In this document: positions 18,754-20,813 of the stretch, in pieces
Position numbering within the stretch: position 1 is the first letter of the stretch
Layout: each line of letters starts with the position of its first letter
IMG/VR virus record: IMGVR_UViG_3300029610_000212
Origin: a virus
Taxonomy: Duplodnaviria > Heunggongvirae > Uroviricota > Caudoviricetes
Strand: one strand, 5' to 3'
Length of the DNA: 21,329 nucleotides
Notes under the pieces: generated by a model
Databases searched by the model: none
Told to the model about the DNA's origin: nothing
Seen by the model: only the letters and a program-made list of their open reading frames with translations
Position numbers and translations under genes: made by a program

Positions 18754-18774
18754 AAAAAACGGCCCGCAGGCCGT
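18754..18774 (-). terminator. Intrinsic terminator/attenuator between the tube and chaperone genes
   Basis: Minus strand reads ACGGCC-TGCG-GGCCGT followed by TTTTTT (T-run at 18759-18754), ending 1 nt before the chaperone RBS. Confidence 0.5.
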
Positions 18775-18798
18775 CAGGTAGTTAAAGAACGGGAATAA

Positions 18799-19305
18799 TC
18801 AGAGACGAACTTTTGCCGCCAGACCCGACAACATATCGACACCATTTACCCGACGGGAAAAGCGCTCGGTATCAATGGCAAACAGTTCACGACCATCCAG
18901 CGTCTGTCGGTAATAACTGACCGCAATATCGACCGTGATGGCATTTTCAGAAAGATTATCCTTACCCCGCGCATCTGGCGTGACAGCCTGAATAAACCCT
19001 TCAATTTCCTCAACAGTACCGCGAGCAGTACCGTTGCCGAGATACCCCTGGTAGGCAGTAAAGCGGGAACGACTGCCACTGACAAAACCAAAGCTGGCCA
19101 GCATATCCGTGTCCAGACCGTAAAATTTCACCTGACAGGTCAGTGCTTCCATCCCGTCATCCACGGGCGTGGGCGCATCCTGGGCACCAGTTCGCAGGTC
19201 AGTTTTCACGATTGTCAGCGATGGTGGCGTAAACTCATGCGCCCCCTGAATACGGATCCCCTGCCGGAAGAAAGTCCAGGCACGTAGTGTATTTTTATCG
19301 CTCAT
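18799..19305 (-). CDS. Phage tail tube protein (P2 FII / Mu gpM-like)
   Basis: 168-aa ORF (P2 FII is about 172 aa) directly after the sheath gene; its ATG overlaps the sheath TGA (ATGA at 19305-19302). Confidence 0.85.
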   Translation of the reverse strand: MSDKNTLRAWTFFRQGIRIQGAHEFTPPSLTIVKTDLRTGAQDAPTPVDDGMEALTCQVKFYGLDTDMLASFGFVSGSRSRFTAYQGYLGNGTARGTVEEIEGFIQAVTPDARGKDNLSENAITVDIAVSYYRQTLDGRELFAIDTERFSRRVNGVDMLSGLAAKVRL

Positions 19306-20775
19306 GCTGCCAGCATCTCCTCAAGCGCATAGTTATTATTCACCCGGACGCGCAGACTAATAAGTTCAGTCGGCGATTTCGGTCCAAAGTCATAGTTGAT
19401 ATACAGGACACCTGCCGCCATGCTCTCTGCGGTATTAAGTTCTTCATCCAGCCAGGCCCGACCGCCGAAGATGGCGCCCAGTCCGACCAGTTGTCGCATA
19501 TAGGCATTAATGGTGCCGATAATGTCATCGGCATTTTCGCGATCCAGCGGACGGTCAACATACTCCAGCATGGTTTCCTGAATGCTGTCCTCGATAACAT
19601 CTGCTGTACGTCGTACGGATTCAAAACGCCACTGCGGATCGGTTGCGCACAGACGGTTTCCCCAGTGTTTAAAGCCCGCACGACGGATAATGGTGGATAC
19701 GTTCTGCATGTTGAGCTGGTTCGCATCGCAGTTTTCATCCCCGAGAATAAATTCGTCGATCTGCTCCACTCCGAGGATATTGTTGATGTCCTGGTTCGAT
19801 TTACTCCACCACCAGCCCTTTTCGTAGTCGATACGGGCACGTAATCCGGCGGCAAAAGCAGAGTAAGGGCGATACACTAACTGGCCATCCGCATCGGCAG
19901 CCTGTACACGCGGTCGCAACAGTTNNNNNNNNNNNNNNNNNNNNNNNNNNNNNNNNNNNNNNNNNNNNNNNNNNNNNNNNNNNNNNNNNNNNNNNNNNNN
20001 NNNNNNCCGCGCGTAATTTCCCGGCCACCGTTTCCAGGGCTTTCCCGACCGCATCGTCCTCACTGAATCCCGGCGCAATCACAATACGTGGCTGATACGT
20101 GGTAATGGATTTTGCTGATGACAGAAGCCCAATCCCTTTCAGTATGGCTGCCCGTTTTTTTGCCCCGTCAGTTTCATCAGCCACCCGCACCACCACTGTC
20201 AGCGCATTACGCTGATCATTAATCTCTGTCAGCGCCTGTTTGAGAGTCCCCTTGTCTCCCAGACGATTAATGAGCGCGGTGCCCGCCACAGCCACAGGCG
20301 TATTTAACGGAAAAGGCTCATCTTCGCCCCCTTCCAGCTTTACACTGAACGTTGCCAACAGCCCCTCGCCACTGCCTTCGGCCTGAACTTTGACGCCATC
20401 CAGCGCATTGACCACACTGACCACATCAGCAGGTCGCGCCGTGATCACCCCCTGCTCATCACAGCCCAGTGTCACCGTCAGTTTGTGCGTAACGTCATCC
20501 CAGGATGCCGATGTGTTAACAGCCTGCGGGCTTTCCGTATCTGGTACCGCCGCCACCGCGTCCACCTGGATAACATTGCCAGCCCGGCCCCTCTCCTTTG
20601 CTGTGAAGTTCAGAACGTTATCCAGAATCGGCGTCCCGGTGGTGACCGCTGCCGCACTCCCGGCAGACGACTCCGGTGCCGTGCCCACCAGACCGATAAT
20701 AGCCGTCTGGATAGTGGTCACCGCCACAGTTCCCGAGGTCAGTTCAATTGTTTCAACACCATGTAACTGAGACAT
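19302..20775 (-). CDS. Phage contractile tail sheath protein (P2 FI / Mu gpL-like), interrupted by an 82-N run at 19925-20006
   Basis: Track ORFs 19801..20850 and 19302..20078 are the N- and C-terminal parts of one sheath-sized protein (about 490 aa) split by the N-run. Start taken at MSQLHGVETIELTSG (ATG 20775-20773, preceded by GGAGAAAGAC). Confidence 0.85.
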
Positions 20776-20791
20776 GTCTTTCTCCAGCCAT

Positions 20792-20813
20792 AAAAAAACC
20801 TGCCGCAGCAGGT
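20792..20813 (-). terminator. Intrinsic terminator between the spike-like gene and the sheath gene
   Basis: Minus strand reads ACCTGC-TGCG-GCAGGT (20813-20798) followed by TTTTTT (20797-20792). It starts at the last base of the upstream TGA and lies about 17 nt before the sheath ATG. Same TGCG loop as the 18754-18774 hairpin. Confidence 0.55.

Follow-up and report, generated by a model that had tools for sequence, protein, structure and literature searches.

We report here on two small hairpins, called T1 and T2 below, which flank the tail sheath and tail tube genes of a virus of Caudoviricetes known from the IMG/VR record IMGVR_UViG_3300029610_000212. The whole stretch of DNA that was analysed, 21,329 nucleotides (nt) in length, is referred to as the window, and coordinates are those of the window unless another sequence is named. 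On its minus strand, the genes around the hairpins and the hairpins themselves follow each other, in the direction of transcription, as listed below.

20813-21329, minus strand: 3' part of a gpV-like baseplate spike gene, with its stop codon at 20815-20813, running off the end of the window.
20792-20814, minus strand: T1, read from the sequence as a stem of 7 base pairs (bp) with a 4-nt loop (20814-20797) and a run of seven T (20798-20792).
19302-20775, minus strand: tail sheath gene, with the ribosome-binding site (RBS) GGAG at 20785-20782 and Pfam matches to Phage_sheath_1 and Phage_sheath_1C.
18799-19305, minus strand: tail tube gene, the ATG of which overlaps the sheath stop codon (ATGA), with a Pfam match to Phage_tube (E = 5e-21).
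18754-18775, minus strand: T2, read from the sequence as a 7-bp stem with a 4-nt loop (18775-18758) and a run of six T (18759-18754).
18441-18750, minus strand: gpE-type tail assembly chaperone gene, including its RBS GGAGGTG, with the ATG at 18740 and a Pfam match to Phage_TAC_7 (E = 2e-12).
16428-18338, minus strand: tape measure gene, an open reading frame (ORF) of 636 amino acids at the tape-measure position, and the first large low-copy gene downstream of T2.

The sequence of T1 is GACCUGC-UGCG-GCAGGUU at 20814-20797, and the first two bases of its stem, G and A, are supplied by the gpV stop codon TGA (20815-20813); downstream follow GGAG and the sheath ATG at 20775, leaving 16 nt between the U-tract and the start codon. 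T2 reads GACGGCC-UGCG-GGCCGUU at 18775-18758, with the tube stop codon (18801-18799) 24 nt upstream and the chaperone RBS GGAGGTG (18750-18744) 3 nt downstream, and here 13 nt lie between the U-tract and the ATG at 18740. Each stem has 4 or 5 G-C pairs, and the U-tracts partly extend the stems. Folding of the 25-nt elements with RNAfold gives -11.6 kcal/mol for T1 and -13.1 kcal/mol for T2, with z-scores of -3.4 and -3.1, respectively, against dinucleotide shuffles. A sequence-only reading of this DNA had described two minus-strand hairpins with a TGCG loop and six or seven T at these positions, the second adjoining the chaperone RBS, and both the coordinates and the description prove to be correct. 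On the whole, all sequence features being present, T1 and T2 are predicted to be genuine elements of the Rho-independent terminator type.

The occurrence of such elements in the tail operon is not expected by chance. We applied a strict terminator filter, which accepts compact hairpins of dG <= -8 if the next 8 nt contain six or more T or if TTTTT follows, to the 10.8 kb of the tail operon (10526-21329). The sense strand yields T1, T2 and one marginal match inside gpD, and the antisense strand of the same region yields no match at all. Sixty dinucleotide shuffles give a mean of 0.28 matches, and only one of the 60 has at least two with dG <= -11. A looser terminator scan is not enriched overall (15 found, 11.4 expected), and T1 and T2 are the best minus-strand entries in it. 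An Rfam search of the two hairpins gives no match at the gathering threshold nor at E <= 1. As to the TGCG loop, which is common to T1 and T2 in the window, C(UGCG)G is a member of the extra-stable UNCG tetraloop class, so that the loop in both is most simply a thermodynamic coincidence; a specific role for it was considered and is ruled out, as the T1 loop turns over freely in relatives. In the minimum free energy fold of 18744-18801 (minus strand), the tube stop-codon region (UGAUUAUUCCCGUU) pairs with the chaperone RBS region (AAUGGAGGUGAUUA) around T2, and this pairing is present in the folds of both the window and the near-identical contig L193 described below. It could couple translation of the chaperone to termination at the tube stop codon, or it may be fortuitous, since the spacer is not conserved among relatives. 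It is also the sole alternative pairing found here in the folds of these two sequences; with an unconserved region upstream of T2 and no Rfam family, the arrangement does not resemble a leader-type attenuator or a riboswitch.

Both hairpins are widely conserved. Among annotated relatives, Citrobacter phage Chris1 and a prophage of E. coli SC476 are the closest, each with 81% nucleotide identity, and in both of them the two hairpins are kept while the spacer from the tube stop codon to T2 has diverged. Starting from an alignment of the tube protein (66 homologues found), we gathered 100 loci from genomes and viral contigs, with hosts from Citrobacter to Serratia, Providencia, Rouxiella and Tatumella, and extracted both junctions from each locus. 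T1 is found upstream of the sheath RBS in essentially all of them, and T2 in all but a few, for example locus L011, where it is seemingly degraded, and L017, which has a different hairpin; L030, L095 and L008 have variants of T2 with a single mismatch. The loop of T1 appears as TGCG, TTCG, TACG, TCCG, CGCG, TGTG, TTAA, TTCA, ATCA and others, and TGCG is not a conserved motif. The stems, by comparison, stay paired in 98% of alignment cells for T1 (37 distinct sequences, three pairs changed on both sides) and in 96% for T2 (38 distinct sequences, two pairs changed on both sides), against 18-68% in controls with the alignment slid. A compensatory change in T1 is from U-A to C-G in 7 sequences, which turns CCUGC/GCAGG into CCCGC/GCGGG. 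In T2 the changes are from A-U to G-C in 4 sequences and from G-C to A-U in 2; ACGGCC/GGCCGU is replaced by GCGACC/GGUCGC in Providencia and by GCGGCC/GGCCGC in Serratia. Nearly all relatives retain the U-tract, and the spacer between tube and T2 is unalignable. Because the pairing is maintained with compensatory changes, next to a flank that cannot be aligned and a U-tract that is kept, the alignments give moderate support to selection on the RNA or terminator structure at both T1 and T2.

The context of the hairpins becomes clear from the contig L193, which was recovered by a terminase-anchored search, has one mismatch to the window in the 1323 nt compared ahead of a masked run in the sheath gene, and reaches 18 kb further upstream than the window. 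In L193, genes for NinB, RusA and a Q-like antiterminator (PHROG 79, E = 6e-54) are followed, about 140 nt past the Q-like gene, by a terminator of -20.8 kcal/mol; the segment 5129-5717 of L193 holds the Q-like gene, then an A+T-rich stretch, two hairpins and this terminator. A convergent, reverse-oriented gene of 365 amino acids (PHROG 410) has its stop codon facing the same terminator; we take this gene to encode a putative porin on the basis of its position and its Tyr-Gln-Phe ending alone. Its position presumably matches that of nmpC in prophage DLP12, and the arrangement from Q to holin is one that we take to resemble quuD-nmpC-essD of the same prophage. Next come the genes for holin, lysin, spanin, terminase, portal and a protease-capsid fusion, and then those for decoration, neck and tail completion, followed by gpV, sheath and tube; these genes share one strand and overlap or are tightly spaced. 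Judged from genes and terminator, L193 has what is characteristic of a lambdoid Q operon, i.e. a Q-like gene, a promoter-proximal terminator, and the genes from holin to tail on one strand. At the equivalent position, Chris1 and the SC476 prophage encode another Q-like protein (PHROG 753), and several viral contigs carry both this Q allele and a relative of the tube gene. The late genes for lysis, head and tail are thus predicted to form a single lambdoid operon of the Q type with a P2-type contractile tail.

In this operon, a third element of the same kind was found upstream of the region covered by the window.

L193 15888-15907: T0, ACCGCCGCGUCAGGCGGU followed by 8 U, located 3 nt past the stop codon of the protease-capsid fusion gene, with a second hairpin after it.

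The strict filter, applied to the 12-kb morphogenesis region of L193, gives exactly T0, T1 and T2. In the terminase-anchored loci, terminators stand behind the capsid gene (36 of 39 loci, often with a tandem pair near +2 and +30), behind gpV (35 of 39) and behind the tube gene (28 of 30); the 4 loci that fail for gpV are matches of 36-38% identity that are doubtful as gpV homologues. The offset of T1 from the preceding stop codon is always -1, and that of T2 varies from +14 to +26. The two hairpins had been read as a bracket around the sheath-tube pair. Since T0 follows the capsid gene as well, this bracket has to be given up as such, and it is seen as part of a three-point punctuation of one late operon.

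The gpV-like gene is weakly matched by Phage_base_V and the GpV Apex motif of Pfam, and the annotation of its E. coli SC476 homologue reads 'phage baseplate assembly protein V'. The sheath gene of the window, 1474 nt from ATG to stop, is interrupted by a masked run of 82 N (19925-20006), in place of which 78 nt of normal coding sequence for the sheath are present in L193, within an intact ORF of 489 codons; the frame break is an artefact of the N run, and there is no frameshift. The chaperone start codon matches those of the annotated homologues in Chris1 and SC476. About 100 nt (18338-18441, minus strand) separate the stop codon of gpE from the first start in frame with the tape measure ORF, and at this position P2 has its -1 frameshift extension (E+E'). 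After the tape measure gene, also on the minus strand, come gpU, gpX, gpD, gpW, gpJ, gpI, a fibre gene and a fibre-assembly gene. A small hairpin lies at 14631-14644 (minus strand; GCGCC-ATCC-GGCGC followed by UUUCGU), within the 40-nt gap between gpD and gpW. It was considered as a third internal terminator of the window and dropped, as the version in Chris1 has only 4 bp and lacks a U-tract; by this comparison it is probably not a conserved element.

The junction of T1 has also received insertions. Locus L019 of Rouxiella carries 1.4 kb of cargo (589-2031 of that locus) exactly between the gpV stop codon and T1, and locus L011 of Tatumella carries 0.4 kb (about 1636-2070) exactly there. The insert in L019 consists of two reverse-strand genes with their own terminator, one of them encoding a protein of the cytidine/dCMP-deaminase family, and a PADLOC search of the cargo genes upstream of T1 in the relatives gives no match to a defence system. 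Like the region before FI in P2, the junction in front of the sheath gene seems to be a hot spot for cargo.

Anatomy, conservation and covariation of the hairpins, absence of promoters at the two junctions (see below) and presence of a Q gene in a near-identical contig are direct observations. From them and from published work we infer how read-through, attenuation strength, stabilisation and ribosome occlusion would operate at T1 and T2. The reading that we hold to be probable, with some reserve, is that the two hairpins serve as expression-tuning punctuation in a Q-antiterminated late operon, T2 being a leaky attenuator as well as a 3' stabiliser, and T1 mainly an insulator. According to a passage of PMC6606751, Q makes RNA polymerase resistant to terminators, and an excerpt of PMC7547250 describes the lambdoid late promoter as constitutive and terminated just downstream in lysogeny. 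A polymerase loaded with Q would read largely through T0, T1 and T2 during lytic growth, so that they would tune rather than end transcription, and the same three elements would fully stop a polymerase without the modification. The effect on expression would further depend on the distance to the preceding stop codon. In reporter experiments in vivo with the tR2 terminator, placement 5 bp past the stop codon of a translated gene reduces the efficiency to <10%, the efficiency climbs with distance to about 0.9 beyond 30 bp, and termination is restored if translation is uncoupled, the cause being that the terminating ribosome blocks folding of the hairpin (PMC4824070). At +24, T2 would fold behind the terminating ribosome and fall in the range from partly to fully active, which would make it a leaky attenuator. 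Since the stem of T1 begins inside the gpV stop codon, T1 would be occluded by the ribosome on a translated message and nearly silent. It would act mainly on transcripts that are not translated or not antiterminated, insulating the tail genes in the lysogen and from upstream cargo, and it would possibly serve also as the 5' boundary hairpin of the sheath-tube segment. In addition, the hairpin of T2 would be a barrier to 3' exonucleases, in line with the statement, in an excerpt of PMC11696848, that terminators can increase the stability of the upstream mRNA. Attenuation and barrier together would make the sheath-tube message more abundant than that of chaperone and tape measure, and T0, like T2, would be a leaky attenuator and 3' stabiliser after a high-copy cistron. 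The position of a 3' stabiliser fits T2, T0 and the hairpins without U-tract in P2-family phages; it does not fit T1. Inefficient, leaky terminators are a documented means of phages to balance expression, and terminators with read-through have been mapped in phage LUZ7 (PMC9163698).

Several points weigh against this reading. The covariation is modest, with few pairs involved, and the sequences are related, so that shuffle controls overstate the significance. The Q gene lies in L193, a near-identical contig, and not in the window itself. Termination, read-through and stabilisation at T1 and T2 are all inferred. If the read-through caused by Q is nearly complete, attenuation at T2 becomes negligible, and only roles in stability and insulation are left. 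As for T1, it follows the gene of a protein needed in three copies, where a role as 3' stabiliser makes little sense, and a role as 5' hairpin would need a hypothetical cleavage just upstream.

Among the alternatives, the one that survives best, although we regard it as unlikely, is that T1 and T2 both terminate ordinary RNA polymerase in part and together hold sheath and tube at a high level and chaperone and tape measure at a low one, as the sequence-only reading had proposed. Both hairpins have canonical terminator anatomy, stepwise read-through is documented in other phages (PMC9163698), and T2 is rightly placed for a step-down ahead of the low-copy genes; for T2 the proposal is partly right. 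It is wrong for T1, which lies upstream of the sheath gene, where termination would lower and not raise transcription of sheath and tube. T1 moreover starts in a stop codon and should be repressed by the ribosome (PMC4824070), and with a third element behind the capsid gene, the two hairpins are no dedicated bracket. Finally, the operon is probably Q-antiterminated, and given the lambdoid Q-type context in L193 and relatives, the lytic polymerase is probably resistant to terminators and any attenuation may be weak.

We consider it rather improbable that the hairpins are pure fail-safe insulators, which would stop only polymerases without Q, started from spurious or cargo promoters in the lysogen, and which would have no effect on lytic ratios. 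The lambdoid design speaks for such a role, with its late promoter constitutive and terminated in lysogeny (PMC7547250, in the excerpt mentioned), as do the cargo inserted directly upstream of T1 in L011 and L019 and the terminator-insulators described for Tn916 in a passage of PMC11658703. However, the positions are not random but follow the high-copy capsid and tube cistrons, the cargo in L019 is on the opposite strand, and the P2-family phages, which are not antiterminated, keep the post-tube hairpin mostly without a U-tract and hence in a form unable to insulate. Of similarly low probability in our view is that T1 and T2 are matched 5' and 3' boundary hairpins, defining a long-lived sheath-tube mRNA after endonucleolytic cleavage of the Q-antiterminated transcript. 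The post-tube hairpin in general would then be an ancient RNA-stability element of P2-type tail modules, which would have gained a full U-tract only in antiterminated lineages because only there would a full terminator be harmless.

It is very improbable that the hairpins are chance palindromes, or scars of module junctions or moron insertions with no present function. T1 does sit at the P2-type site of the terminator preceding the F operon, and two relatives have cargo at this junction; but the compensatory changes, the kept U-tract and the turnover of the loop, in hosts ranging from Citrobacter to Rouxiella and Providencia, speak for selection that is still at work, and the shuffles give just 0.28 matches per 10.8 kb. 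Hardly credible at all is the other suggestion of the sequence-only reading, operon boundaries with very compact promoters before the sheath and chaperone genes: a P2-type sheath gene does open an operon and is preceded by a terminator and then an activator-dependent promoter, but such junctions measure 90-150 nt, compared with only 16 nt (T1) and 13 nt (T2) from U-tract to start codon here, mostly RBS, and our scans find neither a sigma-70-like site near either junction nor, within 350 nt of them, a TGT-N12-ACA activator site of the P2 type.

Outside the tail operon, the remainder of the window holds further features. A very A+T-rich stretch at about 9610-10330, downstream of the tail-fibre assembly gene, is followed by the gene of a YadA-like trimeric autotransporter adhesin of 430 amino acids (8317-9609, minus strand), and the two together (8317-10330) may be prophage cargo or an adjacent island. 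An Rfam match of 204 bits to the RNA family IS009 at 6099-6299 (minus strand) and a truncated transposase ORF with integrase-core (rve) domains at 7667-8230 (plus strand) suggest remnants of insertion sequences near the end of the prophage. From 88 to 5414 (plus strand) there are pilus genes of host type, with an EcpB C-terminal domain and CooC_C/TcfC usher-like domains, and this end of the window is apparently chromosomal rather than phage DNA.

If the favoured reading of T1 and T2 as punctuation in an antiterminated operon is true, one antiterminated transcript gives this phage widely differing protein doses, with hundreds of copies needed of sheath and tube against a handful of chaperone, tape-measure and baseplate proteins. 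The means would be small hairpins of the terminator type, the effect of which is set by the distance from the preceding stop codon. This would be of use in the annotation of prophage operons and in the engineering of expression cassettes for tailocins or phages, and it would provide compact terminators with natural variants.

We then compare the arrangement with known systems. Leaky terminators after major structural genes are known in T7, as T-phi after gene 10, and in filamentous phage after gene VIII. The principle is the same as here in these phages and in LUZ7 (PMC9163698), where an inefficient terminator or 3' hairpin past a high-copy structural gene sets a step-down in expression; they differ in that their polymerases or regulation are others and that the activity is shown experimentally, whereas it is predicted for T1 and T2. 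The Q-antiterminated late operon of lambda contains a hairpin and U-run between D and E (6100-6115) and, directly after the E stop codon, a hairpin with a UUCG loop that adjoins the FI RBS (7162-7181), the latter matching T0 in position and form. Unlike in the window, such elements are missing around the major tail gene V of lambda, where the gap between V and G is 15 nt.

The P2 family provides the homologous tail genes. Late transcription of the P2 type is driven by an activator of the Ogr type from four promoters, with no antitermination. The F operon of P2 (FI FII E E' T U D) has its tail genes in the same order as here; however, gpV is in a separate operon in P2 and other Peduoviridae, and the sheath gene of the P2-family phages is preceded by a true operon boundary, 90-150 nt long, which holds a terminator and an activator-dependent promoter. 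In P2 a 9-bp stem is located 11 nt past the FII stop codon; it has no U-tract, and the P2 record does not label it a terminator. Overall, a stable hairpin lies directly after the tube gene in 8 of nine annotated, hand-picked P2-family phages. The U-tract is absent in P2, a 186-like phage, a Fels-2-like phage, phiE12-2 and RSA1, and partial in phiCTX; it is partial also in ECOO78, which belongs to Iiscvirinae and not to Peduoviridae. This points to a general role of a hairpin at the tube junction, as far as the sequences indicate. It further hints, with nine phages being too small a sample to establish it, that the post-tube hairpin is a general feature and that a full terminator at this place is tolerated mainly under antitermination. 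The record of the P2-like Mannheimia phage vB_MhM_587AP1 (KP137434) has a Rho-independent terminator annotated just upstream of the sheath gene FI and a second one between the tube gene FII and the tail protein gene E, so that the sheath-tube pair of a homologous tail module is bracketed as here. This phage differs by a late promoter beside the upstream terminator, which makes a true operon boundary of about 100 nt, and by the lack of a Q-type context.

HK97 is a lambdoid phage with a Q-dependent late operon. Its GenBank record (AF069529) annotates 'putative terminators' after the major head gene (5192-5213), directly before the major tail gene gp12 (6692-6719, AACCCGCCAGAUGGCGGGUU with a U-rich tail and then the RBS), and directly after gp12 (7443-7462), where the hairpin adjoins the frameshifting chaperone gp13/14. 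This layout matches T0, T1 and T2, and the HK97 sequences were confirmed on inspection. The differences are that HK97 has a non-contractile tail and one bracketed gene instead of the sheath-tube pair, that its post-gp12 hairpin has no U-tract, and that the sequences are unrelated to T1 and T2. With this layout present in the HK97 record, and leaky terminators being an accepted strategy of phages, no new question is opened by T1 and T2; the punctuation around sheath and tube is another instance of a known layout of late operons, already annotated in HK97.

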